From the IMG/VR virus record IMGVR_UViG_2690316210_000007, positions 1 to 35,809 of that record: a DNA stretch of 35,809 bases. One strand, written 5' to 3'. A program made the translations under genes and the position numbers. The DNA comes from a virus. Lineage: Duplodnaviria; Heunggongvirae; Uroviricota; Caudoviricetes. Position 1 is the stretch's first letter. Each line of letters begins with the position of its first letter. The notes below the pieces were generated by a model that saw only the letters and a program-made list of their open reading frames with translations, did no database searches and was not told the origin of the DNA. This document shows positions 3,112 through 33,723 of this stretch, piece after piece.

Positions 3112-4968
3112 ATGGCATTTAAACACTATGACGTGGTCAGGGCGGTATCGCCGTCAGACCTTGCGAAACGACTGACACAAAAACTGAAGGAGGGCTGGCA
3201 GCCGTTTGGTAGTCCGGTGGCCATAACCCCTTATACCCTGATGCAGGCGATTGCAGCAGAAGGTGATGTGGTGGTCAGTGGTGCAACTGAGCCGGATTGG
3301 TACTACGTCATCGTACTGGCCGGGCAGTCCAATGCCATGGCTTACGGTGAAGGGCTTCCGCTGCCGGATTCATACGATGCGCCCCATCCGCGCATTAAGC
3401 AACTGGCCCGTCGTAACACAGTGACTCCCGGTGGTGAAGTATGCGTATTTAACGACATCATTCCTGCTGACCATTGTCTGCATGATGTTCAGGATATGAG
3501 TACGATTAACCATCCCCGGGCTGACCTGAGCAAAGGGCAGTACGGCTGTGTCGGACAGGGCTTACATATTGCCAAAAAACTGCTTCCGTATATCCCTAAT
3601 AACGCGGGGATCCTGCTGGTACCATGCTGTCGTGGTGGTTCGGCATTCACCCAGGGCACGGAGGGGACATTCAGCGAGTCCACGGGGGCCAGTCAGGATT
3701 CGGCTCGCTGGGGAGTGGGTAAGCCGTTATATCAGGATCTGCTTTTCCGCACGAAGGCAGCATTGCAGAAAAACCCGAAAAACGTTTTGCTGGCGATATG
3801 CTGGATGCAGGGGGAATTCGATATGACGAATGCCAGTTACGCCCAGCAGCCAGCAGCATTTCTTGCAATGGTACAGCAGTTCCGTGCTGACCTTGCCGGG
3901 CTGGCGGCGCAGTGTCACGGTGGAAGTCCGGCATCAGTCCCCTGGATTTGTGGCGACACGACATACGCGTGGAAACAAGAACACGGTACGCAATATGAAG
4001 TGGTATATGGTGCATATAAAGGTAAAGAATCCCAGCAGATTTATTTTGTTCCCTTTATGACCGATGGTAGCGGAGTTAATACACCGACAAACAACCCGTC
4101 AGAAGATCCTGATATTGCCGGGTCTGGTTATTACGGTTCGGCATCCCGAACGAACAAAAACTGGGTATCATCAAATCGCCCGACGCATTTCAGCTCATGG
4201 GCGCGTCGTGGCATTATTCCCGATCGTATGGCAACTGCTATTCTGAACGTAGCCGGTCGCACCTTAGCCTTCATTAGTGGTAAGGCACCGGAAATCAAAC
4301 CCTCGCCCGGCGGCGACACTCCATCGGGGCCGTCTGATGGTGACACATCCGTTCGTACAGTCTCCCTGCTGCCGACAGCCGGAGAGGCTGCTGCGCAGGG
4401 CTGGACCATCACCGGCGGCAGTGTTGCGCTGGAAGATGGTGTGTTTAAGGTTACCAAGCAGAGCAATAAAACCTGGTCCCTGATGCATCCGGTGGATGAC
4501 GCAGTCTCCCTGCTGACACGGGGTGGCAGACTGAGCTGTAAGTTTCGACTGTCAGGCGCACTGACCAACAACCAGTTCGGTCTGGGAATTTATCTGTATA
4601 CCGATGTAGCGTTACCTGACGTCGTGGCGATGACCGGGACTGGTAACCCGTTCCTGATGTCGTTCTTCACCCAGACCACAGACGGCAAACTGAATCTGAT
4701 GCATCACAGGAAAGCAGGAAACACAAAGTTGGGCGAGTTCGGGAATTACAGTAACGACTGGCAGACGCTGGAGCTGGTGTTCACCGCCGGCAGTGCCACG
4801 GTTACTCCGAAACTGAATGGAGTGGCTGGCCCGGCATTCCAGGTCATAAAAGACAGTCTGACACTGGGGCTGAATGCGCTGACGCTGACGGATATTACCA
4901 AAAATGCAGCGTATGGCGTTGAGATAGAAAGTCTGGTGCTGGAGATAAATGCACCAGCATCATCATAA
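3112..4968 (+). CDS. nanS-p: Prophage sialate O-acetylesterase (nanS-p-like; SGNH/SASA-type esterase with C-terminal extension)
   Basis: 618-aa ORF with RBS ggagga before ATG 3112. Contains the GQSN esterase motif (VIVLAGQSNAMAYGEG). It sits between the tRNA/stx-equivalent region and the lysis cassette, as nanS-p homologues do in Stx and Stx-like prophages. Confidence 0.7.
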   Translation: MAFKHYDVVRAVSPSDLAKRLTQKLKEGWQPFGSPVAITPYTLMQAIAAEGDVVVSGATEPDWYYVIVLAGQSNAMAYGEGLPLPDSYDAPHPRIKQLARRNTVTPGGEVCVFNDIIPADHCLHDVQDMSTINHPRADLSKGQYGCVGQGLHIAKKLLPYIPNNAGILLVPCCRGGSAFTQGTEGTFSESTGASQDSARWGVGKPLYQDLLFRTKAALQKNPKNVLLAICWMQGEFDMTNASYAQQPAAFLAMVQQFRADLAGLAAQCHGGSPASVPWICGDTTYAWKQEHGTQYEVVYGAYKGKESQQIYFVPFMTDGSGVNTPTNNPSEDPDIAGSGYYGSASRTNKNWVSSNRPTHFSSWARRGIIPDRMATAILNVAGRTLAFISGKAPEIKPSPGGDTPSGPSDGDTSVRTVSLLPTAGEAAAQGWTITGGSVALEDGVFKVTKQSNKTWSLMHPVDDAVSLLTRGGRLSCKFRLSGALTNNQFGLGIYLYTDVALPDVVAMTGTGNPFLMSFFTQTTDGKLNLMHHRKAGNTKLGEFGNYSNDWQTLELVFTAGSATVTPKLNGVAGPAFQVIKDSLTLGLNALTLTDITKNAAYGVEIESLVLEINAPASS

Positions 4969-5118
4969 AAAGTGAGCCAGTCAAATGGAAGGTATCGTTA
5001 AACTCACCGGTAGTGTCAGTGGGTCGTCTGAGATGCCTGCATGAGTTATCAGAGCCATCAGTACTTAACTGGTGGCTTTTTTTATTGTTGTCAGCTTCCG
5101 GATAACGGGAGACGGGGT

Positions 5119-5334
5119 ATGTACCAGATGGAAAAAATCACAACAGGTGTGTCATACACCACGTCAGCGGTGGGAACGGGCTACTGGTTCCTGCAGTTGC
5201 TGGACAGGGTTTCCCCGTCTCAGTGGGCGGCAATAGGCGTGCTGGGGAGTCTGCTGTTTGGGCTGCTGACATATCTGACTAACCTGTATTTCAAAATCAG
5301 AGAGGACCGTCGTAAGGCTGCACGGGGAGAGTAA
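5119..5334 (+). CDS. S: Class II holin / pinholin, phage-21 S family (71 aa) with dual-start motif
   Basis: [71 protein letters not shown] closely resembles recalled S21 (..[59 protein letters not shown]). Met1 and Met4 give the antiholin/holin dual start. RBS gggagacgggg. The ORF-track start at 5041 is an upstream extension. Confidence 0.85.
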
Positions 5335-5338
5335 TTCA

Positions 5339-5653
5339 ATGACTCAAAACTATGAACTGATTGTGAAAGGGATCCGCAATTTTGAGAATAAAGTTACGGT
5401 AACTTTAGCGTTACGGGACAAAAAACGCTTTGACGGTGAAATTTTTGACCTGGACATCTCGCTGGACCGTGTTGAAGGTGCCGCGCTGGAGTTTTATGAG
5501 GCAGCAGCCAGAAGGAGCATCAGACAGGTCTTCCTGGATGTTGCTGCCGGGTTATGTGAAGGGGACGAGCTGTTGCCAGAAACGCGCCCCTGTTCAGAGG
5601 CGCGGTATACCATAAAAATTAACAGTTCTGATAACTCGATTACGGGTTGTTAG
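5339..5653 (+). CDS. Hypothetical protein (104 aa) inserted between holin and endolysin
   Basis: Intact ORF with RBS (ggggagagtaattcaATG), tightly packed between S (ends 5334) and R (starts 5709). No lysis-protein motifs recognised; no TM segment or signal peptide seen. Confidence 0.5.
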   Translation: MTQNYELIVKGIRNFENKVTVTLALRDKKRFDGEIFDLDISLDRVEGAALEFYEAAARRSIRQVFLDVAAGLCEGDELLPETRPCSEARYTIKINSSDNSITGC

Positions 5654-5708
5654 CTTTTTGCAGTTGGCTTTCCAGTATCTTTCATTGGTAGCATCCTGAT
5701 AAATATCC

Positions 5709-6242
5709 ATGAGCGCAAAAATCAAATACGGCCTGTCAGCTGCTGTTCTGGCGCTGATTGCTGCAGGCGCGTCTGCTCCTCAAATACTTGACCAGTTTCT
5801 GGATGAAAAAGAGGGTAACCACACTACGGCATACCGCGATGGTTCCGGTATATGGACCATCTGTCGTGGTGCCACAATGGTGGATGGTAAGCCCGTCATA
5901 CCGGGAATGAAGCTGTCGAAGGAAAAATGCGACCAGGTTAACGCTATTGAACGTGATAAGGCGCTGGCATGGGTGGAGCGCAATATTAAAGTACCACTGA
6001 CCGAACCACAGAAAGCGGGTATAGCGTCATTATGTCCCTATAACATTGGCCCCGGTAAGTGTTTCCCGTCGACGTTTTATAAGCGGCTGAATGCCGGTGA
6101 TCGTAAGGGCGCATGCGAGGCGATTCGCTGGTGGATAAAAGATGGTGGGCGCGATTGCCGCATACGTTCAAATAACTGCTATGGACAGGTTATTCGTCGT
6201 GACCAGGAAAGCGCATTAGCCTGTTGGGGGATAGATCAGTGA
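5709..6242 (+). CDS. R: SAR endolysin (T4-lysozyme-type muramidase, phage-21 R-like)
   Basis: N-terminal signal-anchor-release segment ([17 protein letters not shown]) followed by a catalytic E...D...T arrangement ([22 protein letters not shown]). Paired with a pinholin upstream, the canonical pinholin/SAR-endolysin system. Confidence 0.85.
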
Positions 6243-11602: not shown

Positions 11603-11792
11603 ACTGCAGGCGCTGCGTCAGGCGCGCCTTGATTTATTAACCGGTAAACGGGTGGTGTCTGTCCAGAAAGATGGTCGCAGAATTGAATATACGGCAGCTT
11701 CTCTGGATGAGCTTAACCGGGCGATCAATGATGCGGAGTCGGTACTGGGGACAACCCGCCGTCGCCGTCGTCCGCTGGGAGTGAGGTTATGA
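11586..11792 (+). CDS. W: Head-tail joining protein gpW
   Basis: 68 aa; ..LLTGKRVVSVQKDGRRIEYTAAS.. versus recalled lambda W ..[23 protein letters not shown].. Confidence 0.85.
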   Translation: MVTVAELQALRQARLDLLTGKRVVSVQKDGRRIEYTAASLDELNRAINDAESVLGTTRRRRRPLGVRL

Positions 11793-13381
11793 AACGAACG
11801 CCTGTCCTGATTGATGTGAACGGCGTTCCGCTTCGGGAGAGCCTCAGCTACACCGGTGGCGGTGCAGGATTTGGCGGGCAAATGGCAGAGTGGTTGCCAC
11901 CCTCGCAGAGTGCCGATGCGGCCCTGCTGCCCGCGTTGCGTCTGGGGAATGCCCGTGCAGATGATCTGGTGCGCAATAACGGAATAGCGGCCAATGCGGT
12001 GGCCCTGCATAAGGATCACATTGTCGGGCATATGTTTCTGATTAGCTACCGTCCGAACTGGCGCTGGCTGGGGATGCGGGAGACCGCGGCAAAAAGTTTT
12101 GTCGATGAGGTGGAGGCGGCCTGGTCAGAATACGCAGAAGGGATGTTTGGTGAGATCGACGTGGAAGGGAAACGCACGTTTACGGAATTTATCCGTGAAG
12201 GTGTGGGCGTTCATGCGTTTAACGGCGAAATCTTTGTGCAGCCGGTCTGGGATACGGAGAGTACGCAACTGTTTCGTACGCGTTTTAAAGCCGTGAGTCC
12301 GAAACGGGTGGACACGCCAGGACACGGTATCGGGAACCGTTTTCTGCGGGCCGGTGTGGAGGTTGATCGATATGGCCGTGCCGTTGCGTACCATATCTGT
12401 GAGGATGATTTTCCTCGCTCCGGGAGTGGACGATGGGAACGGATCCCGCGTGAACTACCCACCGGGCGTCCGGCCATGCTGCATATTTTCGAGCCGGTGG
12501 AGGACGGGCAGACCCGTGGAGCCAATCAGTTTTACAGCGTTATGGAACGGCTGAAGATGCTGGATTCCCTGCAGGCAACACAGCTTCAGTCGGCCATAGT
12601 GAAGGCGATGTATGCAGCGACGATTGAAAGTGACCTTGATACCGAAAAGGCCTTTGAATATATCGCCGGTGCGCCGCAGGGGCAGAAGGATAATCCGCTT
12701 ATTAATATTCTGGATAAGTTCTCCACCTGGTATGACACGAATAGCGTGACGCTGGGCGGTGTCAAAATTCCGCACCTTTTCCCCGGTGATGATCTGAAAC
12801 TTCAGACCGCGCAGGATTCAGACAATGGATTTTCGGCGCTTGAACAGGCGCTGCTGCGGTATATCGCCGCCGGTCTTGGCGTTTCCTACGAACAGTTGTC
12901 CCGTGATTACTCGAAGGTCAGTTACTCAAGTGCCCGCGCATCCGCCAATGAGTCGTGGCGCTATTTTATGGGGCGGCGAAAATTTATTGCGTCCCGGCTG
13001 GCCACGCAGATGTTTTCCTGCTGGCTGGAAGAGGCACTTCTTCGGGGGATTATTCGTCCGCCACGGGCACGGTTTGATTTTTATCAGGCGCGATCAGCCT
13101 GGTCACGGGCTGAGTGGATTGGAGCCGGAAGAATGGCCATTGACGGGCTCAAGGAGGTTCAGGAATCAGTGATGCGCATTGAGGCCGGACTGAGCACGTA
13201 TGAGAAAGAGCTGGCGCTGATGGGCGAGGATTATCAGGACATTTTCCGCCAGCAGGTCAGGGAATCTGCAGAGCGGGAAAAAGCCGGACTCTCACGTCCG
13301 GTGTGGATAGCGCAGGCGTATCAGCAGCAGATAGCGGAGAGTCGCAGGCCGGAAGAGGAGACAACACCACGTGAGACGTAA
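11789..13381 (+). CDS. B: Portal protein gpB
   Basis: 530-aa ORF in the canonical position after W, overlapping both neighbours; length matches lambda B (~533 aa). Confidence 0.85.
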   Translation: MKRTPVLIDVNGVPLRESLSYTGGGAGFGGQMAEWLPPSQSADAALLPALRLGNARADDLVRNNGIAANAVALHKDHIVGHMFLISYRPNWRWLGMRETAAKSFVDEVEAAWSEYAEGMFGEIDVEGKRTFTEFIREGVGVHAFNGEIFVQPVWDTESTQLFRTRFKAVSPKRVDTPGHGIGNRFLRAGVEVDRYGRAVAYHICEDDFPRSGSGRWERIPRELPTGRPAMLHIFEPVEDGQTRGANQFYSVMERLKMLDSLQATQLQSAIVKAMYAATIESDLDTEKAFEYIAGAPQGQKDNPLINILDKFSTWYDTNSVTLGGVKIPHLFPGDDLKLQTAQDSDNGFSALEQALLRYIAAGLGVSYEQLSRDYSKVSYSSARASANESWRYFMGRRKFIASRLATQMFSCWLEEALLRGIIRPPRARFDFYQARSAWSRAEWIGAGRMAIDGLKEVQESVMRIEAGLSTYEKELALMGEDYQDIFRQQVRESAEREKAGLSRPVWIAQAYQQQIAESRRPEEETTPRET

Positions 13382-14876
13382 TCTTTCACACATTATTGCA
13401 GCAGCATTCAATGAACCGCTGCTTCTGGAGCCCGCCTATGCGCGGGTTTTCTTTTGCGCGCTGGGGCGCGAGATGGGGGCAGCAAGTCTTTCGGTACCGC
13501 AACAGCAGGTACAGCTTGATGCTCCCGGGATGCTGGCTGAAACGGACGAGTACATGGCCGGAGGTAAACGACCGGCCCGTGTTTACCGGGTGGTGAACGG
13601 TATTGCGGTACTGCCGGTGACCGGCACGCTGGTGCACCGGCTGGGGGGGATGCGGCCATTTTCCGGAATGACTGGCTATGACGGCATTGTCGCCTGTCTT
13701 CAGCAGGCAATGGCAGATAGCCAGGTGCGGGGCATACTGCTGGACATTGACAGTCCGGGCGGGCAGGCCGCCGGCGCGTTTGACTGCGCTGACATGATTT
13801 ACCGCCTCCGGCAGCAGAAGCCGGTCTGGGCACTGTGTAATGACACGGCCTGTTCTGCGGCCATGCTGCTGGCGTCGGCCTGCTCCCGACGGCTGGTTAC
13901 CCAGACATCCCGTATCGGTTCCATTGGCGTGATGATGAGCCATGTCAGCTATGCCGGTCATCTGGCGCAGGCCGGTGTGGATATCACGCTGATTTACTCA
14001 GGGGCGCACAAGGTGGATGGCAATCAGTTTGAAGCGTTGCCGGCAGAGGTTCGCCAGGACATGCAGCAGCGGATTGATGCGGCGCGCCGGATGTTTGCCG
14101 AAAAAGTGGCGATGTTTACCGGTCTGTCTGTTGATGCAGTCACGGGAACAGAGGCCGCTGTTTTTGAAGGTCAGTCCGGCATTGAGGCCGGGCTGGCGGA
14201 TGAATTAATCAATGCGTCGGATGCCATCAGTGTGATGGCCACGGCGCTGAACAGTAATGTCAGAGGAGGCACTATGCCGCAATTAACTGCAACGGAAGCC
14301 GCCGTGCAGGAGAACCAGCGAGTGATGGGGATCCTGACATGCCAGGAAGCGAAAGGACGTGAACAGCTTGCCACGATGCTGGCAGGGCAACAGGGCATGA
14401 GCGTTGAACAGGCCCGGGCGATTCTGGCCGCGGCGGCACCGCAGCAGCCGGTGGCATCCGCGCAGAGTGAAGCCGATCGCATTATGGCGTGTGAAGAAGC
14501 GAACGGTCGTGAACAACTGGCGGCAACGCTGGCGGCGATGCCGGAGATGACGGTGGAAAAAGCCCGCCCGATCCTGGCGGCTGCACCACTGGCGGATGCC
14601 GGGCCCTCGCTTCGTGATCAGATCATGGCCCTGGATGAGGCAAAAGGGGCAGAAGCGCAGGCTGAAAAACTGGCGGCCTGCCCGGGAATGACCGTGGAGA
14701 ACGCCCGGGCTGTGCTGGCTGCGGGATCAGGTAAGGCCGAACCGGTCTCTGCATCCACAACCGCCCTGTTTGAACATTTCATGGCGAATCATTCACCGGC
14801 AGCGGTGCGGGGTGGCGTGTCACAGACGTCAGCAGACGGTGATGCGGACGTGAAAATGCTCATGGCCATGCCATGA
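13371..14876 (+). CDS. C: Head maturation protease / scaffold gpC (S49 family), with the Nu3-like scaffold region in its C-terminal part
   Basis: ..AFNEPLLLEPAYARVFFCALG.., ..GIAVLPVTGTLV..YSGMTGY.., ..LLDIDSPGG..AGAFDCAD.., ..VWALCNDTACSAA..LASACSRRLVTQTSRIGSIGVMMSH.. match recalled lambda C. The C-terminal region carries three diverged ~40-aa repeats. Confidence 0.85.
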   Translation: MRRNLSHIIAAAFNEPLLLEPAYARVFFCALGREMGAASLSVPQQQVQLDAPGMLAETDEYMAGGKRPARVYRVVNGIAVLPVTGTLVHRLGGMRPFSGMTGYDGIVACLQQAMADSQVRGILLDIDSPGGQAAGAFDCADMIYRLRQQKPVWALCNDTACSAAMLLASACSRRLVTQTSRIGSIGVMMSHVSYAGHLAQAGVDITLIYSGAHKVDGNQFEALPAEVRQDMQQRIDAARRMFAEKVAMFTGLSVDAVTGTEAAVFEGQSGIEAGLADELINASDAISVMATALNSNVRGGTMPQLTATEAAVQENQRVMGILTCQEAKGREQLATMLAGQQGMSVEQARAILAAAAPQQPVASAQSEADRIMACEEANGREQLAATLAAMPEMTVEKARPILAAAPLADAGPSLRDQIMALDEAKGAEAQAEKLAACPGMTVENARAVLAAGSGKAEPVSASTTALFEHFMANHSPAAVRGGVSQTSADGDADVKMLMAMP

Positions 14877-14912: not shown

Positions 14913-15260
14913 ATGGTGACGAAAACCATCACTGAACAGCGTGCGGAAGTACGTATTTTTGCCGGTAATGATCCGGCTCATACCGCCACAGGCAGCAGCG
15001 GGATTTCTTCTGCAACACCGGCTCTGACGCCCCTGATGCTGGATGAAGCCACCGGGAAACTGGTGGTCTGGGATGGACAGAAAGCCGGTAGTGCGGTTGG
15101 CATACTGGTACTGCCGCTTGAAGGCACAGAGACGGTGCTGACCTATTACAAGTCGGGGACCTTTGCGACGGAGGCAATCCGCTGGCCTGACAGTGTGGAT
15201 GAACACAAAAAGGCAAATGCCTTTGCCGGCACAGCCCTGAGTCACGCGGCTCTGCCGTAA
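14913..15260 (+). CDS. D: Head decoration protein gpD
   Basis: 115 aa; ..GNDPAHTATGSSG..TPLMLDEATGKLVVWDG..VGILVLPLEGTETVLTYYKSGTF.. versus recalled lambda D. Confidence 0.85.
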   Translation: MVTKTITEQRAEVRIFAGNDPAHTATGSSGISSATPALTPLMLDEATGKLVVWDGQKAGSAVGILVLPLEGTETVLTYYKSGTFATEAIRWPDSVDEHKKANAFAGTALSHAALP

Positions 15261-15317: not shown

Positions 15318-16346
15318 ATGGGATTGTTTACGACCCGCCAGTTACTCGGTTATACCGAACAAAAAGTGAAATTCCGTGCGCTGTTTCTGGAGCTGTTTTT
15401 CCGCCGTACGGTGAATTTCCACACCGAAGAGGTGATGCTGGACAAAATTACCGGAAAAACGCCGGTGGCGGCCTATGTCTCCCCGATCGTTGAAGGAAAA
15501 GTGCTTCGCCATCGCGGTGGTGAAACCCGCGTGTTACGTCCGGGCTACGTCAAGCCGAAACACGAATTTAATTACCAGCAGGCGGTTGAGCGCCTTCCTG
15601 GTGAAGATCCGGCTCAGCTGAACGACCCGGCCTACCGTCGTCTGCGTATCATTACCGATAACCTCAAACAGGAAGAGCACGCCATTGTCCAGGTGGAAGA
15701 AATGCAGGCGGTGAATGCCGTGCTGTATGGCAAATACACCATGGAAGGGGATCAGTTTGATACTGTCGAGGTGGATTTCGGGCGCTCTGAAGGAAATAAC
15801 ATTGAGCAGGCTGACGGTAAAAAATGGTCTGAGCAGGACCGTGATACGTTTGATCCGACGCATGATATTGACCTCTACTGCGATCAGGCCAGCGGCCTTG
15901 TGAATATCGCCATTATGGACGGTACGGTCTGGCGTCTGCTGAATGGCTTTAAGCTGTTCCGCGAAAAACTGGATACCCGTCGCGGCTCAAATTCACAACT
16001 CGAAACGGCAGTGAAAGATCTGGGCGCAGTGGTGTCCTTCAAGGGGTATTACGGCGATCTGGCCATTGTGGTGGCGAAAACGTCTTATGTGGCAGAGGAC
16101 GGTACCGAAAAACGTTATCTGCCGGAGGGCATGCTGGTGTTGGGGAATACGGCGGCAGAGGGGATTCGTTGCTATGGTGCCATTAAGGATGCACAGGCGT
16201 TGTCTGAAGGAGTGGTGGCTTCTTCCCGTTACCCGAAACACTGGCTGACCGTGGGCGATCCGTCCTGTGAATTCACCATGACGCAGTCCGCTCCGCTGAT
16301 GGTGCTGCCGGATCCGGATGAGTTTGTGGTGGTACAGGTGAAATAA
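15318..16346 (+). CDS. E: Major capsid protein gpE
   Basis: 342 aa; ..VSPIVEGKVLRHRGGETRVLRPGYVKPKHE.., ..VEEMQAVNAVLYGKYTM.., ..LDTRRGSNSQLETAVKDLG.., ..MTQSAPLMVLPDPDEF.. versus recalled lambda E. Confidence 0.9.
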   Translation: MGLFTTRQLLGYTEQKVKFRALFLELFFRRTVNFHTEEVMLDKITGKTPVAAYVSPIVEGKVLRHRGGETRVLRPGYVKPKHEFNYQQAVERLPGEDPAQLNDPAYRRLRIITDNLKQEEHAIVQVEEMQAVNAVLYGKYTMEGDQFDTVEVDFGRSEGNNIEQADGKKWSEQDRDTFDPTHDIDLYCDQASGLVNIAIMDGTVWRLLNGFKLFREKLDTRRGSNSQLETAVKDLGAVVSFKGYYGDLAIVVAKTSYVAEDGTEKRYLPEGMLVLGNTAAEGIRCYGAIKDAQALSEGVVASSRYPKHWLTVGDPSCEFTMTQSAPLMVLPDPDEFVVVQVK

Positions 16347-19713: not shown

Positions 19714-22267
19714 TCTTGTTATTGACCTGAGTCTGGATGCTGTCCGTTTCGATGAGCAGATGAGCCGGGTAAGGCGTCATTTTTCAGGTCTGGATACCGA
19801 CGCCAGAAAAACCGCCAGTGCTGTTGAACAGGGCCTGAGCCGCCAGGCGCTGGCTGCACAAAAAGCCGGGATTTCCGTCGGGCAGTATAAAGCGGCCATG
19901 CGAACCCTGCCCGCACAGTTTACGGATATCGCCACGCAGCTTGCCGGTGGTCAGAATCCCTGGTTGATCCTGCTGCAACAGGGCGGTCAGGTGAAGGACT
20001 CCTTCGGCGGGATGATCCCCATGTTCAGGGGGCTTGCCGGTGCGATCACCCTGCCGATGGTCGGGGTCACCTCGCTGGCGGTGGCGACAGGTGCGCTGGC
20101 GTACGCCTGGTACCAGGGCGACGCCACGCTTTCAGAATTTAATAAAACGCTGGTCCTTTCCGGCAATCAGGCCGGACTGACTGCCGATCGTATGCTGACG
20201 CTCTCAAGAGCCGGGCAGGCAGCAGGGCTGACGTTTAACCAGGCGAGAGAGTCACTGGCAGCCCTGGTGAATGCCGGTGTGCGTGGTGGTGAACAGTTTG
20301 ATGCCATCAACCAGAGTGTCGCGCGTTTTGCGTCTGCATCCGGTGTGGAGGTGGATAAAGTCGCTGAAGCCTTCGGGAAGCTGACCACTGACCCGACGTC
20401 GGGACTGATGGCGATGGCGCGCCAGTTCCGTAACGTGACGGCAGAGCAGATTGCGTATGTTGCACAGCTGCAGCGTTCCGGAGACGAGGCCGGGGCATTG
20501 CAGGCGGCGAACGATATCGCCACGAAAGGCTTTGATGAGCAGACCCGTCGCCTGAAAGAAAACATGGGAACACTGGAGACCTGGGCGGATAAAACAGGGA
20601 AGGCATTCAAATCGATGTGGGATGCCATTCTGGATATCGGTCGTCCGGAATCCTCAGCGGATATGCTCGCCAGTGCGCAGAAGGCATTTGATGAGGCGGA
20701 TAAAAAATGGCAGTGGTACCAGAGCCGGAGCCAGCGCCGGGGAAAGACCTCCTCTTTTCGTGCGAACCTTCAGGGGGCATGGGATGACCGGGAAAATGCC
20801 CGTCTGGGTCTGGCAGCGGCCACGCTGCAGTCGGATATGGAAAAAGCCGGTGAACTGGCGGCAAGGGACAGGGCTGAGCGTGAGTCGTCACAGCTGAAGT
20901 ATACCGGAGAGGCGCAGAAGGCGTATGAGCGCCTGCAGACGCCGCTGGATAAATATACCGCCCGTCAGAAAGAGCTGAATAAGGCCCTGAAAGACGGAAA
21001 AATCCTGCAGGCGGATTACAACACGCTGATGGCGTCGGCAAAAAAGGATTATGAATCGACGCTGAAAAAGCCGTCAGGTGTGAAGGTGTCTGCCGGTGAG
21101 CGCCAGGAAGACCGGGCGCATGCAGCCCTGCTGGCGCTTGAAACCGAGCTCAGGACGCTGGAAAAACACAGCGGTGTGAATGAGAAAATCAGCCAGCAGC
21201 GCCGGGATTTATGGGAAGCGGAAAGTCAGTATGTGGTCCTGAAAGAGGCCGCCACGAAACGGCAGTTATCTGAGCAGGAAAAATCCCTGCTGGCTCATGA
21301 GAAAGAGACGCTGGAGTACAAACGCCAGCTGGCTGAGCTGGGAGACAAGATTGAACACCAGAAGCGGCTGAATGAGCTGGCACAGCAGGCGGCGCGGTTT
21401 GAACAGCAGCAAAGCGCGAAGCAGGCGGCAATCAGCGCAAAAGCCCGCGGCCTCACCGACCGTCAGGCGCAGCGGGAGTCGGAAGAGCAGCGCCTTCGTG
21501 AGGTGTACGGTGATAATCCGGCTGCGCTGGCGAAGGCCACATCGGCACTGAAGAACACCTGGTCTGCGGAGGAGCAGCTTCGTGGAAGCTGGATGGCCGG
21601 GATGAAGTCCGGCTGGAGTGAGTGGGAAGAGAGCGCCACGGACAGTATGTCACAGGTTAAAAGTGCAGCCACGCAGACCTTTGATGGTATTGCACAGAAT
21701 ATGGCGGCGATGCTGACCGGCAGTGAACAGAACTGGCGCAGCTTCACCCGCTCCGTGCTGTCCATGATGACAGAAATTCTGCTTAAGCAGGCAATGGTGG
21801 GGATTGTCGGGAGTATCGGCAGCGCCATTGGCGGGGCTGTTGGTGGCGGCGCATCCGCGTCAGGCGGTACAGCCATTCAGGCCGCTGCGGCGAAATTCCA
21901 TTTTGCAACCGGGGGATTTACGGGAACCGGCGGCAAATATGAGCCAGCGGGGATTGTTCACCGTGGTGAATTTGTCTTCACAAAGGAGGCAACCAGCCGG
22001 ATTGGCGTGGGGAATCTCTACCGGCTGATGCGCGGCTATGCCACCGGTGGTTATGTCGGTACACCGGGCAGTCTGGCTGACAGCCGGTCGCAGGCGTCCG
22101 GGACGTTTGAGCAGAATAACCATGTGGTGATTAACAACGACGGCACGAACGGGCAGATAGGTCCGGCTGCTCTGAAGGCGGTGTATGACATGGCCCGCAA
22201 GGGTGCCCGTGATGAAATTCAGACACAGATGCGTGATGGTGGCCTGTTCTCCGGAGGTGGACGATGA
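19694..22267 (+). CDS. H: Tail tape measure protein gpH
   Basis: 857 aa (lambda H is about 853), long alpha-helical/coiled-coil central region, Gly-rich C-terminal region, canonical position between G-T and M. Confidence 0.9.
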   Translation: MSQPVGDLVIDLSLDAVRFDEQMSRVRRHFSGLDTDARKTASAVEQGLSRQALAAQKAGISVGQYKAAMRTLPAQFTDIATQLAGGQNPWLILLQQGGQVKDSFGGMIPMFRGLAGAITLPMVGVTSLAVATGALAYAWYQGDATLSEFNKTLVLSGNQAGLTADRMLTLSRAGQAAGLTFNQARESLAALVNAGVRGGEQFDAINQSVARFASASGVEVDKVAEAFGKLTTDPTSGLMAMARQFRNVTAEQIAYVAQLQRSGDEAGALQAANDIATKGFDEQTRRLKENMGTLETWADKTGKAFKSMWDAILDIGRPESSADMLASAQKAFDEADKKWQWYQSRSQRRGKTSSFRANLQGAWDDRENARLGLAAATLQSDMEKAGELAARDRAERESSQLKYTGEAQKAYERLQTPLDKYTARQKELNKALKDGKILQADYNTLMASAKKDYESTLKKPSGVKVSAGERQEDRAHAALLALETELRTLEKHSGVNEKISQQRRDLWEAESQYVVLKEAATKRQLSEQEKSLLAHEKETLEYKRQLAELGDKIEHQKRLNELAQQAARFEQQQSAKQAAISAKARGLTDRQAQRESEEQRLREVYGDNPAALAKATSALKNTWSAEEQLRGSWMAGMKSGWSEWEESATDSMSQVKSAATQTFDGIAQNMAAMLTGSEQNWRSFTRSVLSMMTEILLKQAMVGIVGSIGSAIGGAVGGGASASGGTAIQAAAAKFHFATGGFTGTGGKYEPAGIVHRGEFVFTKEATSRIGVGNLYRLMRGYATGGYVGTPGSLADSRSQASGTFEQNNHVVINNDGTNGQIGPAALKAVYDMARKGARDEIQTQMRDGGLFSGGGR

Positions 22268-22593
22268 AAACCTTCCGCTGGAAAGTGAAACCCGGGATGG
22301 ATGTGACATCGGCTCCTTCCGTCAGGGAGGTGCGCTTTGGTGATGGCTATTCCCAGCGTGCGCCTGCCGGGCTGAACGCTGACCTGAAAACGTACAGCGT
22401 GACGCTGTCTGTCTCCCGTGAGGAGGCCACGGCGCTGGAGTCGTTTCTGGCTGAGCACGGGGGCTGGAAGGCCTTTCTGTGGACGCCGCCTTATGGTTAC
22501 AGGCAGATAAAGGTGACCTGCGCAAAATGGTCGTCGCAGGTCAGTATGTTGCGTGTTGGGTTCAGCGCAGAGTTTAAACAGGTGGTGAACTGA
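22264..22593 (+). CDS. M: Tail tip assembly protein gpM (copy 1)
   Basis: 109 aa, same length as lambda M; starts by ATGA overlap with the H stop. Confidence 0.85.
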   Translation: MKTFRWKVKPGMDVTSAPSVREVRFGDGYSQRAPAGLNADLKTYSVTLSVSREEATALESFLAEHGGWKAFLWTPPYGYRQIKVTCAKWSSQVSMLRVGFSAEFKQVVN

Positions 22594-23618
22594 TGCAGGA
22601 TATCCGGCAGGAAACACTGAATGAATGCACCCGTGCGGAGCAGTCGGCCAGCGTGGTGCTCTGGGAAATCGATCTGACAGAGGTCGGTGGAGAACGTTAT
22701 TTTTTCTGTAATGAGCAGAACGAAAAAGGTGAGCCGGTCACCTGGCAGGGGAGGCAGTATCAGGCGTATCCCATTCAGGGGAGCGGTTTTGAACTGAATG
22801 GCAAAGGCACCAGTACGCGGCCAACGCTGGCAGTCTCTAACCTGTACGGCATGGTCACCGGTATGGTGGAAGATATGCAGAGTCTGGTCGGCGGAACGGT
22901 GGTCCGGCGTAAGGTTTACGCCCGTTTTCTGGATGCGGTGAACTTCGTCAACGGAAACAGCGACGCCGATCCGGAACAGGAGGTGATCAGCCGCTGGCGC
23001 ATTGAGCAGTGCAGCGAACTGAGCGCGGTGAGTGCCTCTTTTGTACTGTCCACGCCGACGGAAACAGATGGCGCTGTTTTTCCGGGACGTATCATGCTGG
23101 CCAACACCTGCACCTGGACCTATCGCGGACTGCTTAAGCAGGCAATGGTGGGGATTGTCGGGAGTATCGGCAGCGCCATTGGCGGGGCTGTTGGTGGCGG
23201 CGCATCCGCGTCAGGTGGTACAGCCATTCAGGCCGCTGCGGCGAAATTCCATTTTGCAACCGGGGGATTTACGGGAACCGGCGGCAAATATGAGCCAGCG
23301 GGGATTGTTCACCGTGGTGAATTTGTCTTCACGAAGGAGGCAACCAGCCGGATTGGCGTGGGGAATCTCTACCGGCTGATGCGCGGCTATGCGGAAGGTG
23401 GTTATGTGGGCGGTGCCGGAAGTCCGGCGCAGATGCGGCGGGCTGAAGGCATTAATTTTAATCAGAACAATCACGTGGTGATTCAGAACGACGGTACGAA
23501 TGGTCTGCCAGGTCCACAGATGATGAAGGCCGTGTATGACATGGCCCGCAAGGGTGCCCGTGATGAAATTCAGACACAGATGCGTGATGGTGGCCTGTTC
23601 TCCGGAGGTGGACGATGA
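22593..23618 (+). CDS. Chimeric ORF: gpL N-terminal ~179 aa fused in frame to the C-terminal ~163 aa of gpH (duplication junction product)
   Basis: Residues 1-179 (MQDIRQETLNECTRAEQSASVVLWEIDL...LANTCTWTYRG) are lambda L-like. From LLKQAMVGIVGSIGSAIGG onward the sequence repeats the H C-terminus of 21778-22267, partly identical at nucleotide level. Confidence 0.7.
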   Translation: MQDIRQETLNECTRAEQSASVVLWEIDLTEVGGERYFFCNEQNEKGEPVTWQGRQYQAYPIQGSGFELNGKGTSTRPTLAVSNLYGMVTGMVEDMQSLVGGTVVRRKVYARFLDAVNFVNGNSDADPEQEVISRWRIEQCSELSAVSASFVLSTPTETDGAVFPGRIMLANTCTWTYRGLLKQAMVGIVGSIGSAIGGAVGGGASASGGTAIQAAAAKFHFATGGFTGTGGKYEPAGIVHRGEFVFTKEATSRIGVGNLYRLMRGYAEGGYVGGAGSPAQMRRAEGINFNQNNHVVIQNDGTNGLPGPQMMKAVYDMARKGARDEIQTQMRDGGLFSGGGR

Positions 23619-23944
23619 AAACCTTCCGCTGGAAAGTGAAACCCGGTATGGATGTGGCTTCGGCCCCTTCTGTAAGAAAGGTGCGCTTTGGTGATGGCTA
23701 TTCCCAGCGAGCGCCTGCCGGGCTGAATGCCAACCTGAAAACGTACAGCGTGACGCTTTCTGTCCCCCGTGAGGAGGCCATGGTACTGGAGTCGTTTCTG
23801 GAAGAGCACGGGGGCTGGAAAGCCTTTCTGTGGACGCCGCCTTATGAGTGGCGGCAGATAAAGGTGACCTGCGCAAAATGGTCGTCGCGGGTCAGTATGC
23901 TGCGTGTTGAGTTCAGCGCAGAGTTTGAACAGGTGGTGAACTGA
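23615..23944 (+). CDS. M: Tail tip assembly protein gpM (copy 2, on the duplicated segment)
   Basis: 109 aa, near-identical to copy 1 with scattered substitutions. Confidence 0.85.
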   Translation: MKTFRWKVKPGMDVASAPSVRKVRFGDGYSQRAPAGLNANLKTYSVTLSVPREEAMVLESFLEEHGGWKAFLWTPPYEWRQIKVTCAKWSSRVSMLRVEFSAEFEQVVN

Positions 23945-24813
23945 TGCAGGATATCCGGCAGGAAACACTGAATGAATGCACCCGTGCGGAGCAGTCGGCC
24001 AGCGTGGTGCTCTGGGAAATCGATCTGACAGAGGTCGGTGGAGAACGTTATTTTTTCTGTAATGAGCAGAACGAAAAAGGTGAGCCGGTCACCTGGCAGG
24101 GGCGACAGTATCAGCCGTATCCCATTCAGGGGAGTGGTTTTGAACTGAATGGCAAAGGCACCAGTACGCGCCCCACGCTGATGGTTTCTAACCTGTACGG
24201 TATGGTCACCGGGATGGCGGAAGATCTACAGAGTCTGGTCGGCGGAACGGTGGTCCGGCGTAAGGTTTACGCCCGTTTTCTGGATGCGGTGAACTTCGTC
24301 AACGGAAACAGTGACGCCGATCCGGAGCAGGAGGTGATCAGCCGCTGGCGCATTGAGCAGTGCAGCGAACTGAGCGCGGTGAGTGCCTCTTTTGTACTGT
24401 CCACGCCGACGGAAACAGATGGCGCTGTTTTTCCGGGACGTATCATGCTGGCCAACACCTGCACCTGGACCTATCGCGGCGATGAGTGCGGTTATCACGG
24501 TCCGGCGGTCGCGGATGAATATGACCAGCCAACGTCCGACATCACGAAGGATAAATGCAGCAAATGCCTGAGTGGCTGTAAGTTTCGAGATGGCGCTGTT
24601 TTTCCGGGGCGTATCATGCTGGCCAACACCTGCACCTGGACCTATCGCGGTGATGAGTGCGGTTATCACGGTCCGGCAGTCGCGGATGAATATGACCAGC
24701 CGACGTCCGATATCACGAAGGATAAATGCAGCAAATGCCTGAGCGGCTGTAAGTTTCGCAATAACGTCGGCAACTTTGGCGGCTTCCTTTCCATTAACAA
24801 ACTTTCGCAGTAA
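23944..24813 (+). CDS. L: Tail tip protein gpL carrying an in-frame 57-codon tandem duplication
   Basis: 289 aa versus 232 for lambda L. The block DGAVFPGRIMLANTCTWTYRGDECGYHGPAVADEYDQPTSDITKDKCSKCLSGCKFR occurs twice in tandem (24418-24588 and 24589-24759). Confidence 0.8.
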   Translation: MQDIRQETLNECTRAEQSASVVLWEIDLTEVGGERYFFCNEQNEKGEPVTWQGRQYQPYPIQGSGFELNGKGTSTRPTLMVSNLYGMVTGMAEDLQSLVGGTVVRRKVYARFLDAVNFVNGNSDADPEQEVISRWRIEQCSELSAVSASFVLSTPTETDGAVFPGRIMLANTCTWTYRGDECGYHGPAVADEYDQPTSDITKDKCSKCLSGCKFRDGAVFPGRIMLANTCTWTYRGDECGYHGPAVADEYDQPTSDITKDKCSKCLSGCKFRNNVGNFGGFLSINKLSQ

Positions 24814-24818
24814 ATCCC

Positions 24819-25562
24819 ATGACAGAGACAGAATCAGCGATTCTGGCGCACGCCCGGCGATGTGCTCCAGCGGAGTCGTGCGGCTTCGTGGTAAGAACGC
24901 CGGAGGGGGAAAGATATTTCCCCTGCGTGAATATCTCCGGTGAGCCGGAGGCGTATTTCCGTATGTCGCCGGAAGACTGGCTGCAGGCAGAGATGCAGGG
25001 TGAGATTGTGGCACTGGTCCACAGCCACCCCGGTGGTCTGCCCTGGCTGAGTGAGGCCGACCGGCGGCTGCAGGTGCAGAGTGATTTGCCGTGGTGGCTG
25101 GTCTGCCGGGGGGCGATTCACAAGTTCCGCTGTGTGCCGCATCTCACCGGGCGGCGCTTTGAGTACGGGGTGACGGACTGTTACACACTGTTCCGGGATG
25201 CTTACCATCTGGCGGGGATTGAGATGCCGGATTTTCATCGTGAGGATGACTGGTGGCGTCACGGTCAGAATCTCTATCTGGATAATCTGGAGGCCACAGG
25301 GCTGTATCAGGTGCCGTTGTCAGCGGCGCAGCCGGGCGATGTGCTGCTGTGCTGTTTTGGTTCATCGGTGCCGAATCATGCCGCCATTTACTGTGGTGAC
25401 GGCGAGCTGCTGCACCATATTCCTGAACAACTGAGCAAACGAGAGAGGTACACCGACAAATGGCAGCGACGCACACACTCCCTCTGGCGTCACCGGGCAT
25501 GGCACGCATCTGCCTTTACGGGGATTTGCAACGATTTGGCCGCCGCATCGACCTTCGTGTGA
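24819..25562 (+). CDS. K: Tail tip assembly protein gpK (MPN/JAB plus NlpC/P60-like)
   Basis: MTETESAILAHARRCAPAESCGFVVRTPEGERYF...HSHPGG...; near-identical to recalled lambda K. Confidence 0.85.
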   Translation: MTETESAILAHARRCAPAESCGFVVRTPEGERYFPCVNISGEPEAYFRMSPEDWLQAEMQGEIVALVHSHPGGLPWLSEADRRLQVQSDLPWWLVCRGAIHKFRCVPHLTGRRFEYGVTDCYTLFRDAYHLAGIEMPDFHREDDWWRHGQNLYLDNLEATGLYQVPLSAAQPGDVLLCCFGSSVPNHAAIYCGDGELLHHIPEQLSKRERYTDKWQRRTHSLWRHRAWHASAFTGICNDLAAASTFV

Positions 25563-26131
25563 AAACGGGTGCCGAAGCCATCCGGGCGATGGCCACACAG
25601 CTCCCTGCGTTTCGTCAGAAGCTGAGCGACGGCTGGTATCAGGTGCGTATTGCCGGGCAGGATGTTAGCACGTCCGGATTAACGGCGCAGTTACATGAGG
25701 CTCTGCCTGACGGCGCTGTGATTCATATTGTTCCCAGAGTCGCCGGGGCCAAGTCAGGTGGTGTATTCCAGATTGTCCTGGGAGCAGCCGCCATTGCCGG
25801 ATCATTCTTTACCGCCGGAGCCACCCTTGCAGCATGGGGGGCTGCCATTGGTGCCGGTGGTATGACCGGCATTCTGTTTTCTCTCGGTGCCAGTATGGTG
25901 CTCGGCGGTGTGGCTCAGATGCTGGCACCGAAAGCCAGAACTCCCCGCACACAGACAACGGATAACGGTAAGCAGAACACCTATTTCTCCTCACTGGATA
26001 ACATGGTTGCCCAGGGCAATGTTATGCCTGTTCTGTATGGTGAAATGCGCGTGGGGTCACGTGTGGTATCTCAGGAGATCAGCACGGCAGACGAAGGGGA
26101 CGGTGGTCAGGTTGTGGTGATTGGTCGCTGA
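25460..26131 (+). CDS. I: Tail tip assembly protein gpI
   Basis: 223 aa, MAATHTLPLASPGMARICLYGDLQRFGRRIDLRVKTGAEAIRA..., near-identical to recalled lambda I; overlaps the 3' end of K. Confidence 0.85.
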   Translation: MAATHTLPLASPGMARICLYGDLQRFGRRIDLRVKTGAEAIRAMATQLPAFRQKLSDGWYQVRIAGQDVSTSGLTAQLHEALPDGAVIHIVPRVAGAKSGGVFQIVLGAAAIAGSFFTAGATLAAWGAAIGAGGMTGILFSLGASMVLGGVAQMLAPKARTPRTQTTDNGKQNTYFSSLDNMVAQGNVMPVLYGEMRVGSRVVSQEISTADEGDGGQVVVIGR

Positions 26132-26191
26132 TGCAAAATGTTTTATGTGAAATCGCCTCCGGGCGGTTTTATCGTTTATGGAGCATGACGA

Positions 26192-26462
26192 ATGGGTAAA
26201 GGCAGCAGTAAGGGGCATACCCCGCGCGAAGCGAAGGACAACCTGAAGTCCACGCAGCTGCTGAGTGTGATCGATGCCATCAGCGAAGGGCCGGTTGAAG
26301 GTCCGGTGGACGGATTAAAAAGCGTGCTGCTGAACAGTACGCCGGTGCTGGACAGTGAGGGGAATACCAACATCTCCGGCGTCACGGTGGTGTTCCGGGC
26401 AGGTGAGCAGGAGCAGACACCGCCGGAGGGTTTTGAATCCTCCGGCTCCGAGACGGTGCTGA
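26192..26462 (+). pseudogene. J: gpJ (central tail fibre / host specificity) N-terminal fragment, truncated by IS insertion or deletion
   Basis: MGKGSSKGHTPREAKDNLKSTQLLSVIDAISEGPVEGPVDGLKSVLLNSTPVLDSEGNTNISGVTVVFRAGEQEQTPPEGFESSGSETVL matches the N-terminus of the full J at 33724. Homology stops at 26462, where IS3-family sequence begins. Confidence 0.8.
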
Positions 26463-27600
26463 TGAAAATCAACTTTCGATCAGTGAAGGCGCTTCCCGAT
26501 TATCTCTTCCTGAAGGCACTTTAGGACAATGGGTTACCGCCGCCAGAAAAGGGCTCGGTACTCCTGGTTCCCGCACGGTGGCTGAACTGGAATCTGAAAT
26601 TCTGCAACTGCGTAAGGCGTTAAATGAAGCTCGCCTTGAGCGAGATATATTAAAAAAAGCAACAGCGTATTTTGCACAGGAGTCGCTGAAAAATACGCGT
26701 TAATCGAACAATGGCGACAACAATTTCCCATTGAAGCGATGTGTCAGGTATTTGGTGTATCCAGGAGCGGTTATTACAACTGGGTACAGCATGAACCCTC
26801 AGACAGAAAACAAAGTGATGAGCGGCTAAAACTGGAGATTAAGGTGGCACATATCCGCACTCGCGAAACATATGGAACCCGGCGGCTCCAGACGGAGCTG
26901 GCAGAGAATGGCATCATCGTTGGTCGTGACCGACTGGCACGTCTTCGTAAGGAGCTAAGGCTACGCTGTAAGCAGAAACGCAAGTTCAGAGCGACTACGA
27001 ACTCGAACCACAATCTGCCAGTTGCGCCAAATCTGCTGAACCAGACGTTCGCTCCTACAGCACCAAATCAGGTCTGGGTGGCGGACCTGACGTATGTTGC
27101 CACACAGGAGGGATGGTTGTACCTCGCTGGCATCAAAGATGTTTATACGTGCGAAATTGTCGGCTACGCCATGGGAGAGCGCATGACAAAAGAGCTGACA
27201 GGTAAAGCCCTGTTTATGGCGCTCAGGAGCCAGCGCCCACCTGCCGGGCTAATCCACCACTCTGATCGAGGTTCACAGTACTGCGCATACGATTACCGGG
27301 TCATACAGGAGCAGTCTGGTCTGAAAACATCAATGTCGCGTAAAGGTAACTGTTACGACAACGCTCCGATGGAAAGCTTCTGGGGAACGCTGAAAAATGA
27401 GAGCCTGAGCCACTATCGTTTTAATAACCGGGATGAAGCCATCTCAGTAATACGGGAATACATTGAGATTTTCTACAATCGTCAGCGTCGTCACTCTCGT
27501 CTGGGGAATATCTCCCCGGCAGCCTTCAGGGAAAAATATCATCAGATGGCTGCTTAAAAAAAGAACAAATGGTAGTGTCCGCTATTGCCAGTACACCTCA
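26463..27600 (+). mobile_element. IS3-family insertion sequence, 5'-truncated (lacks left inverted repeat and the start of orfA)
   Basis: Partial orfA (..TVAELESEILQLRKALNEARLERDILKKATAYFAQESLKNTR*, stop 26701-26703); slippery A-run AAAAAAAG at 26652-26659; orfB in the -1 frame with DDE-type core (HHSDRGSQY, GNCYDNA). Right end TGAGGTGTACTGGCAATAGCGGACAC (reverse complement of ~27575-27600) resembles IS3-family terminal repeats. Confidence 0.8.
26739..27557 (+). CDS. IS3-family transposase orfB (DDE integrase core); normally expressed as an OrfAB frameshift fusion
   Basis: 272-aa ORF; ..QVWVADLTYV..GWLYLAGIKDVYTCEIVGYAMGERMT.., HHSDRGSQYCA, KGNCYDNAPMESFWGTLK, RRHSRLGNISPAAF are typical of IS3-family OrfB. 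Confidence 0.85.
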   Translation: MCQVFGVSRSGYYNWVQHEPSDRKQSDERLKLEIKVAHIRTRETYGTRRLQTELAENGIIVGRDRLARLRKELRLRCKQKRKFRATTNSNHNLPVAPNLLNQTFAPTAPNQVWVADLTYVATQEGWLYLAGIKDVYTCEIVGYAMGERMTKELTGKALFMALRSQRPPAGLIHHSDRGSQYCAYDYRVIQEQSGLKTSMSRKGNCYDNAPMESFWGTLKNESLSHYRFNNRDEAISVIREYIEIFYNRQRRHSRLGNISPAAFREKYHQMAA

Positions 27601-28097: not shown

Positions 28098-28435
28098 CGC
28101 GGGAAATGCAGTTTGTCATGCGGCTTGCCCGGGAGTTCCGGCGGGCAGACTGGCGGCGGATGCTGTCGGATATGTCGGCCACTGAGCTTGGTGAGTGGGG
28201 CGATTATTTCCGGATGCAGAGCTTCAGTGATGTGTGGATGGATGCGCAGTTTGCCTCGCTGAAGGCATTGATCGTGAGAATGGTGTCCGGCAGCAGCGAT
28301 GCTGCGGTGGCTGATTTCAGCCTTTTACCGGAAGAGAACGGGATACCGGAGCGAACGGACGAAGAACTGATGCATCTTGGGGAAGGTATTTCCGGAGGTG
28401 TGCGTTATGGACCAGATAGCCAACCTGGTCATTGA
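27711..28435 (+). CDS. T: gpG-T fusion (copy 2) by presumed -1 frameshift near the end of G
   Basis: The downstream ORF 28106-28435 is in the -1 frame relative to G and runs into the H copy 2 start. The probable slip region CCGGAAAAGTCC (28086-28097) is not the canonical GGGAAAG. Confidence 0.55.
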
Positions 28436-31339: not shown

Positions 31340-31668
31340 TGGAGACGTTTCACTGGAAAGTGCGCCCGGATATGAATGTGGTATCAGAGCCGAAAGTGGT
31401 GACAGTGAAGCTGGGCGATGGTTATGAACAGCGTCGTGCGGCGGGACTGAATAACCAGTTGTCGACTTACAGCGTGACGATACGTGTTCGTAAAGGTGAA
31501 CACCCATTTTTAAAAGCCTTTCTGGAACGGCACGGTGGCGTCCGCGCATTTCAGTGGACGCCACCTTATGACTGGAAGCCGATCAGGGTGGTTTGTCGTA
31601 AATGGTCGGCAAGCGTGGGGGCGTTGTGGGTAACCATAACGGCAGATTTTGAACAGGTCGTGGCATAG
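31339..31668 (+). CDS. M: Tail tip assembly protein gpM (copy 3, divergent)
   Basis: 109 aa, METFHWKVRPDMNVVSEPKVVTVKLGDGYEQRRAAGLN..., collinear with the other M copies. Confidence 0.85.
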   Translation: METFHWKVRPDMNVVSEPKVVTVKLGDGYEQRRAAGLNNQLSTYSVTIRVRKGEHPFLKAFLERHGGVRAFQWTPPYDWKPIRVVCRKWSASVGALWVTITADFEQVVA

Positions 31669-31677
31669 GAGGCTCTG

Positions 31678-32376: not shown

Positions 32377-32380
32377 ATCC

Positions 32381-33663: not shown

Positions 33664-33723
33664 TGCAAAATGTTTTATGTGAAACCGCCTGCGGGCGGTT
33701 TTGTCGTTTATGGAGCGTGAGGA

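Follow-up and report, generated by a model that had tools for sequence, protein, structure and literature searches.

Three diverged copies of a scaffold module in a phage 21-type head protease gene and its nested scaffold gene

The window, by which we mean the whole stretch of 35,809 nt of viral DNA that was analysed (IMG/VR record IMGVR_UViG_2690316210_000007), carries a head-maturation protease gene whose C-terminal part also contains a nested scaffold gene (Table 1). The gene lies between the portal gene and the genes for the decoration and capsid proteins, which is the position of C/Nu3 in lambda. Its 501-aa product was assigned over its full length to PHROG 53, head maturation protease (E 6e-229), and Pfam Peptidase_S49 was matched at aa 146-293 (E 1.5e-34; 119.6 bits, cutoff 24.9). 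The counterparts of Ser166 and Lys218 of lambda gpC are Ser162 and Lys214, within conserved CSA and HKVDG motifs, and on the basis of the lambda gpC literature we take these two to be the probable catalytic residues. The nested, in-frame gene is predicted to start at the ATG at 14274 and to encode a scaffold protein of 200 aa and 20.5 kDa. This ATG is preceded by GAGGAGG and four intervening bases, the same arrangement as the ribosome-binding site and start of phage 21 gene 6, and the corresponding methionine is kept in the Gifsy-1, Trabulsiella and Providencia homologues. An earlier in-frame ATG at 14091, which corresponds to an old annotation of the Nu3 start at lambda 5132, was considered and rejected, as it has no Shine-Dalgarno sequence upstream. 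Three antisense open reading frames over the repeat (14171-14482, 14272-14457 and 14283-14516) were likewise unsupported, with the plus-strand frame under purifying selection.

Table 1. Positions in the window of the head genes and of the features within the protease/scaffold gene
Feature	Position	Strand	Basis or remarks
Portal protein gene	11789..13381	+	PHROG 21, E 3e-190
S49 head-maturation protease gene, C-terminal scaffold part	13371..14876	+	ORF, 501 aa; phage 21 gp5 / lambda gpC homologue
S49 peptidase domain, aa 146-293	13806..14249	+	Pfam
Shine-Dalgarno GAGGAGG for nested scaffold gene	14263..14269	+	Sequence; M81255 RBS 5464-5468 maps to 14263-14267
Nested in-frame scaffold gene, phage 21 gene 6 / lambda Nu3 analogue	14274..14876	+	Matches M81255 CDS 5475-6077
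Unit 1, aa 316-356	14316..14438	+	M81255 Tri1 box maps to 14341-14444
Unit 2, aa 366-406	14466..14588	+	M81255 'Tri box' maps to 14481-14591
Unit 3, aa 413-453	14607..14729	+	M81255 Tri3 box maps to 14622-14735
C-terminal tail, aa 454-501	14730..14873	+	Alignable with lambda gpC/Nu3 C-terminus
Head decoration protein gene, shp / lambda D type	14913..15260	+	PHROG 49, E 3e-30; shp in M81255
Major capsid protein gene, gp7 / lambda E type	15318..16346	+	PHROG 2353 and PHROG 29 major head protein; gene 7 in M81255

A tblastn search of phage genomes with the scaffold part led to GenBank M81255, 'Bacteriophage 21 head gene operon', the paper for which we take to be Smith & Feiss 1993 (Gene 126:1-7). 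This record annotates gene 5 at 4572-6077, the nested gene 6 at 5475-6077 with its ribosome-binding site at 5464-5468, and three repeat_region features, the Tri1 box (5542-5645), the Tri box (5682-5792) and the Tri3 box (5823-5936), each of which bears the note 'function unknown; putative'. M81255 maps onto the window with a fixed offset of 8799, and the Tri boxes then fall on the three units that had been found independently. Phage 21 gene 5 and the window gene both encode 501 aa and are colinear without indels, with 97.4% amino acid identity; 13 of the 501 residues and 45 of 1506 nucleotides differ, and four of the 13 substitutions are inside the units (A373V, A405S, K433Q and N444S, relative to phage 21). 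The nested start, its ribosome-binding site, the three units and the neighbouring genes (portal, shp and gp7) are all shared with phage 21 and, apart from the setting of the window copy in a rearranged prophage, the two differ only as alleles. The comparison shows that the window gene pair is a phage 21-type gp5 with nested gp6 and that its repeats are the annotated Tri boxes. The triplication is already known, having been marked on the phage 21 sequence for decades. A search of the accessible literature on phage 21 and the Tri box returned nothing on the repeats and only general data on lambda Nu3 interactions.

A preceding sequence-only reading of the window had described a triplicated repeat of ~40 aa in the Nu3-like part of a gpC homologue and had placed it at 14320-14730. 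The three peptides that it quoted are all present, and its span fits the in-register units at 14316-14729. Each unit is ~41 aa long, with start-to-start distances of 50 and 47 aa. Tandem Repeats Finder detected no period of ~140-150 nt, only micro-repeats of 18 nt and 10 nt, and self-BLASTP of the 501-aa protein returned the diagonal only; the units were compared instead by in-register ungapped identity, by local alignment against 2,000 composition-preserving shuffles and with a unit HMM. Ungapped identities between the units were 54%, 46% and 56% for amino acids and 62%, 54% and 59% for nucleotides. Local alignment scores of 103, 85 and 97 stood against 25-27 +/- 5 for the shuffles, the highest of which reached 53 (z = 11.5-14.6), and the three-unit profile scored 82-84 bits on each unit of the 501-aa protein. 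Third codon positions agreed between units in only 14-16 of 41 codons (34-39%). The triplication is confirmed as a diverged one that is present at the protein level only. In the tail that follows unit 3, two short helices are predicted, TTALFEHFMANH and DVKMLMA (gp6 residues 160-173 and 190-196).

The 615-nt scaffold region was found in 1,865 of 5,426 complete E. coli genomes (at least 90% nucleotide identity over at least 80% coverage), with up to five copies per genome, and in some complete E. coli chromosomes it is 100% identical. E. coli genomes label the gene simply as 'S49 family peptidase'. The window gene is an ordinary, widespread allele of the phage 21 type and is among the commonest prophage alleles in E. 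coli. In phage genome records, tblastn detected 20 with the full three-unit region and ~80 of lambda type that match one unit only, and three-unit genes are also carried by the GTDB species representatives of E. albertii, E. coli, Shigella flexneri, Trabulsiella guamensis and Providencia alcalifaciens. It had been suggested from the sequence that the repeat expansion could alter head assembly; this was unsupported, three units being what is usual in a large lineage to which the isolated phage 21 also belongs.

Across these hosts the units cluster by position (U1 with U1, U2 with U2 and U3 with U3), and the single lambda unit falls in the U1 class. Comparison of the window with Gifsy-1, Trabulsiella or Providencia shows synonymous sites at or close to saturation, and dN/dS values were 0.11-0.16 for the units, 0.11-0.15 for the protease domain and mostly 0.28-0.48 for the linkers and tail, with the tail itself (0.29-0.48) evolving faster than the units. 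Selection on the protein has kept all three copies. The positional grouping and the saturated synonymous sites show that the triplication predates the split of the prophage lineages, and it is an old expansion that is specific to an enterobacterial clade, neither new nor local.

Copy number also varies among natural alleles. Unit 2 has been lost precisely in allele P0019 and partly in allele P0013, and a four-unit E. coli allele has an exact period of 46 aa with units 2-4 mutually 80-85% identical, which points to an independent expansion. The word-index homologue search gave mostly gene fragments, and it suits the detection of variants rather than an unbiased census of copy number. Natural variants with one, two, three and four units provide a ready series on scaffold valency and length in lambda-type prohead assembly.

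The module reaches well beyond this clade. A profile of 28 units, searched against 1.84 billion representative proteins, matched 1,550 protein clusters at E<=0.001 with between one and four copies, usually one. Among the best 150 of the 1,550, ranked by summed score and so enriched for multi-copy proteins, one copy (at least 20 bits per unit) was present in 130, two in 11 and three in 4. In the best-scoring set, single-unit proteins of at least 380 aa almost always had the end of the unit 40-70 aa before the C-terminus. All ten representatives tested (10/10) belong to head protease/scaffold PHROGs, and conservation of the module extends from enterobacterial proteins to those of alphaproteobacteria and cyanophages. 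Eleven of the 41 columns are invariant or nearly so across the 28 units; these are mostly small or hydrophobic (Ile6, Ala12, Ala19, Leu22, Ala23, Ala33, Leu37 and Ala39), together with a Gly-Arg-Glu turn. Unit 3 of the window protein is without the near-invariant Arg of this turn and reads KGAEAQ, a departure that counts against reading the units as contact modules. Pfam at E<=1 matched the protease part only, with none of its families over aa 316-453, and NCBIfam gave 0 families for gp6; only PHROG phage clusters cover the unit.

In genome loci the unit is found either fused to a protease, of the S49 or the ClpP type (ClpP in L021 and L027), or as a standalone small protein (L017 and L036), whose gene directly follows that of the protease or precedes the capsid genes. 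The loci were collected with the gp6 alignment, which biases them toward QENQRVMGI and EAKGRE patterns, and in 31 of 35 an E-type major capsid gene lies just downstream, accompanied in 29 of these 31 by a detected D-type decoration gene. The other four comprise one locus at a contig edge and three from Bradyrhizobium with a different layout. Capsid, portal and decoration genes all travel together, and co-occurrence with the E-type capsid cannot separate the product of the first of these from those of the other two as the partner of the unit. The module is present across many bacterial phyla in lambda-type head clusters (portal, protease, scaffold, D-type decoration and E-type capsid), where two protease families carry it. 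The nested arrangement places it in both protease and scaffold, and it is tied to D/E head modules whatever the protease family.

Structures were predicted from shallow alignments (19 and 28 sequences). In the AlphaFold2 model of gp6, three separate helical mini-domains are predicted (pLDDT ~80) between low-confidence linkers (pTM 0.27), with no fixed mutual arrangement of the three units and no contact between them. For one unit alone, modelling from the alignment of 28 units predicts a three-helix fold (pLDDT 89.7). The unit is predicted to be an independently folding three-helix mini-domain carried on short, flexible linkers rich in Pro, Ala, Gln and Ser. Sequence searches of the PDB gave only chance matches to LacI (E 0.24-0.31), and no PDB structure reached E <= 0.001 in Foldseek searches with the whole of gp6 or with one unit. 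The only good structural matches in BFVD were S49 prohead proteases of unrelated phages, namely Salmonella phage 37, Synechococcus virus S-ESS1 and an uncultured siphovirus (TMq 0.83-0.88, rmsd ~1 A); their E-values were weak because the domain is short.

We consider it likely that the Tri-box modules of this phage 21-type gene pair are contact modules of the prohead scaffold. The unit region is common to gp5 and gp6, and the module would therefore most probably be a protein-protein contact that brings both scaffold and protease into the shell. Lambda Nu3 is needed for portal incorporation and has been reported to interact with C, with B and with itself, and by two-hybrid assay with E (PMC3224144); in general, a portal is incorporated only if it makes contact with the scaffold (PMC10275583). 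We propose that the units would make weak contacts that recruit scaffold and protease into the growing shell, where they would bind the E-type capsid protein on its inner face and/or the portal and further scaffold molecules. A scaffold with three copies would be multivalent and longer than that of lambda, with its single copy and disordered spacer, and the S49 protease would remove the whole region after shell assembly. As to the main partner of the units, the capsid protein may well fill this role, although we would not put it at even chances; self-association could do so with a lower probability, and the portal would be a rather improbable choice.

As a finding about the window the triplication matters little, as it is annotated on phage 21 and common in E. 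coli. What remains of interest is the role of a widespread scaffold module of ~41 aa for which no curated domain model or solved structure was found. A broader proposal, which we offer tentatively, is that the unit represents an unrecognised family of autonomous domains that serves scaffolds and proteases as a common docking element for lambda E-type (PF03864) capsids, whichever type of protease is present, with one to four copies tuning valency. If true, such a family would give a handle on the poorly understood initiation complex of scaffold, capsid and portal in lambda-type phages.

In P22 and 80alpha it is the extreme C-terminus of the scaffold that binds coat protein, which would make the tail a candidate for the capsid contact in place of the units and leave self-association or spacing to the latter. 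In its fullest form, this explanation makes the units scaffold self-association modules and has the tail alone dock on the capsid, so that triplication alters the geometry of the oligomer and not its valency for capsid. We regard this as possible but somewhat doubtful. The reported Nu3-Nu3 interaction in lambda (PMC3224144) is in its favour, as are the conserved position of the tail 40-70 aa after the last unit across the family and its faster evolution, which would be expected if it were tracking the capsid protein. Bradyrhizobium locus L020, where the protease ORF has a weak unit match (23.7 bits) and a small ORF nearby has a clear unit (60.1 bits), points the same way. However, the monomer model of gp6 (pTM 0.27) predicts no contact between the three units, and the unit tightly co-occurs with E-type capsid genes whichever protease accompanies it.

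That the units might be mainly inert spacers, a space-filling mass in the prohead with no specific binding role and interchangeable with the disordered spacer of lambda, is improbable. The 50-aa low-complexity segment that lambda has where phage 21 has extra units would suit such a role, and so would the variation from one to four copies between close relatives whose capsid gene type shows no obvious change; but the constraint on each unit matches that on the protease domain (dN/dS 0.11-0.16), and neither the (near-)invariance of 11 of 41 columns nor conservation from enterobacterial to alphaproteobacterial and cyanophage proteins is expected of a spacer. It is far less probable still that the repeats act at the level of DNA or RNA, for example as protein-binding sites, recombination sites or translational signals. 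M81255 does list the Tri boxes as repeat_region features on the DNA, and the in-frame deletions and expansions show that units can recombine. Against this, nucleotide identity between units is only 54-62% (34-39% at third positions), no DNA tandem repeat was detected, and in orthologous units the protein sequence is retained despite saturation at synonymous sites. Recent slippage, misassembly or pseudogene formation in a decayed prophage, for which the visibly rearranged tail region of the window with its duplications and IS element might speak, can be dismissed, since the ORF is intact and equal in length to phage 21 gene 5, the scaffold region recurs at 100% identity in complete E. coli chromosomes and at 90% or more in 1,865 genomes, and the units are diverged and orthologous across genera.

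Apart from phage 21 itself, the gene pair can be compared with other known systems, among them lambda. Lambda gpC shares architecture and gene order with the window, and the protease parts are ~54% identical. The nested start of lambda, Met309 after GGAGG, is at the equivalent position and yields a Nu3 of 131 aa and 13.4 kDa; the C-terminal tails of ~45 aa align. Lambda gpC has exactly one unit (aa 359-399, 57.7 bits with the three-unit profile), which bears out the statement in the sequence-only reading that lambda has the motif once. The same reading had the window protein ~60 aa longer than the 439-aa lambda C; the difference is 62 aa, and the repeat explains most of it, because lambda has a 50-aa low-complexity spacer rich in Ser, Thr, Ala, Gln and Asp before its unit, where the further units are missing. 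The window gene has the phage 21 arrangement and not that of lambda, a single unit after a low-complexity spacer. The unit profile found no further unit remnants in the lambda spacer, even with filters off. We also considered the lambda unit as a U1/U3 recombinant left by collapse from three copies, and rejected this, as its identities to the three units are even (24, 24 and 20 of 41) and it clusters with U1. Lambda functions with one unit and a disordered spacer, from which it follows that a T=7 head of lambda type does not depend on additional copies.

Other relatives resemble phage 21 in this respect. The implied contrast between three copies in the window and fewer in lambda and its relatives held for lambda and failed for many relatives, for example Gifsy-1, Trabulsiella and Providencia. 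Gifsy-1 STM2605 and related proteases from Salmonella, Trabulsiella and Providencia prophages carry three units in the same order, orthologous one-to-one with those of the window, and the Gifsy-1-type scaffold part is 57-72% identical to that of the window. The Gifsy-1-type unit 3 keeps the KGRE turn, whereas in the phage 21 type it has changed to KGAE.

More distant systems offer a comparison of function. The helix-turn-helix of P22 gp8 and the C-terminal helices of the 80alpha scaffold are helical, capsid-binding C-terminal domains. The unit was compared with the PDB for a P22 gp8-like domain, and similarity of sequence or fold was not detected there. The window module is internal and repeated, whereas the P22 and 80alpha domains are at the extreme C-terminus. 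In all three cases, however, small helical modules would be part of an acidic, mostly flexible scaffold that is cleared once the shell has assembled, and the P22 and 80alpha scaffold domains provide a plausible functional analogy for the unit.

The tail region of the prophage is irregular at several points (see table of features). Past an insertion sequence lies a second, partial lambdoid tail module, in which the tape-measure gene is divided between two ORFs and is followed by M-, L-, K- and I-like genes. The nucleotide identity of these genes with the first module is 77-95% (31726-33705 against 23992-26173). This two-module arrangement is absent as a contiguous structure from complete E. coli genomes, the best match among them having 82% coverage at 92.5% identity in 7 pieces. 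The prophage is thus either a composite that has decayed or recombined, or a misassembly.

The first tail module contains a tandem duplication that covers the M-like gene, together with the end of the tape-measure gene before it and the first part of the L-like gene after it. The duplication accounts for the two M-like ORFs and also for a chimeric ORF, which matches minor tail protein L over its first 180 aa and the C-terminus of the tape measure over its last 160 aa. An additional internal repeat is present in the L-like ORF that follows. The insertion sequence, of the IS3 family, lies 3' of the ORF resembling tail assembly gene I, at the position that is occupied in a related intact prophage (L004) by the tail tip gene J. 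A matching element in one complete E. coli genome is annotated as IS600. Elsewhere in the window, 1884-2737 holds two tRNA genes and then two copies of an 88-nt repeat; in L004, tRNA genes are found directly 3' of the antiterminator gene.

Features of the prophage outside the protease/scaffold gene
Feature	Position	Details
ORF, 349 aa	785-1834	upstream of both tRNA genes
tRNA-Met(CAT)	1884-1959	
tRNA-Arg(TCT)	2060-2136	
88-nt repeat, two copies	2182-2269; 2650-2737	80% identity
ORF, 618 aa	3112-4968	downstream of 88-nt repeats
Tandem duplication	21779-24480	1351-nt period, 93-95% identity
M-like ORFs	22264; 23615	109 aa each
Chimeric L/tape-measure ORF	22593-23618	matches at both ends
L-like ORF	23944-24813	289 aa, 171-nt repeat at 24418 / 24589
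IS3-family insertion sequence	26192-27557	ORFs of 110 and 272 aa (PHROG 157 transposase)
Second tail module, partial	28106-33705	
Split tape-measure gene	28377-30242; 30239-31339	two ORFs

In some database ORFs the Tri-unit scaffold region is joined to unrelated N-termini. In P0043 the N-terminus is a methyltransferase-like start with a DPPY motif, in the 844-aa P0142 it is a fragment of a tape measure, and in P0032 a fragment of a portal. These fusions appear to have arisen by rearrangement of prophages or by frameshift, and not to be true domain architectures. Three Bradyrhizobium loci (L018, L020 and L024) are a different context for the module. The small proteins that they encode carry one or two units and repeated C-terminal 'W(D/G)xxLxSRGM' motifs, and no D/E-type capsid gene was detectable nearby; at L020 there is also a weak unit match in a separate S49 ORF upstream.

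Of the three units, unit 3 had the highest dN/dS (0.23-0.27). In unit 3 of the phage 21-type allele (14622-14735) the 'KGRExLA' turn/helix reads 'KGAEAQA', both the near-invariant Arg and the next Leu being substituted, whereas unit 3 of Gifsy-1, Trabulsiella and Providencia retains KGRE.
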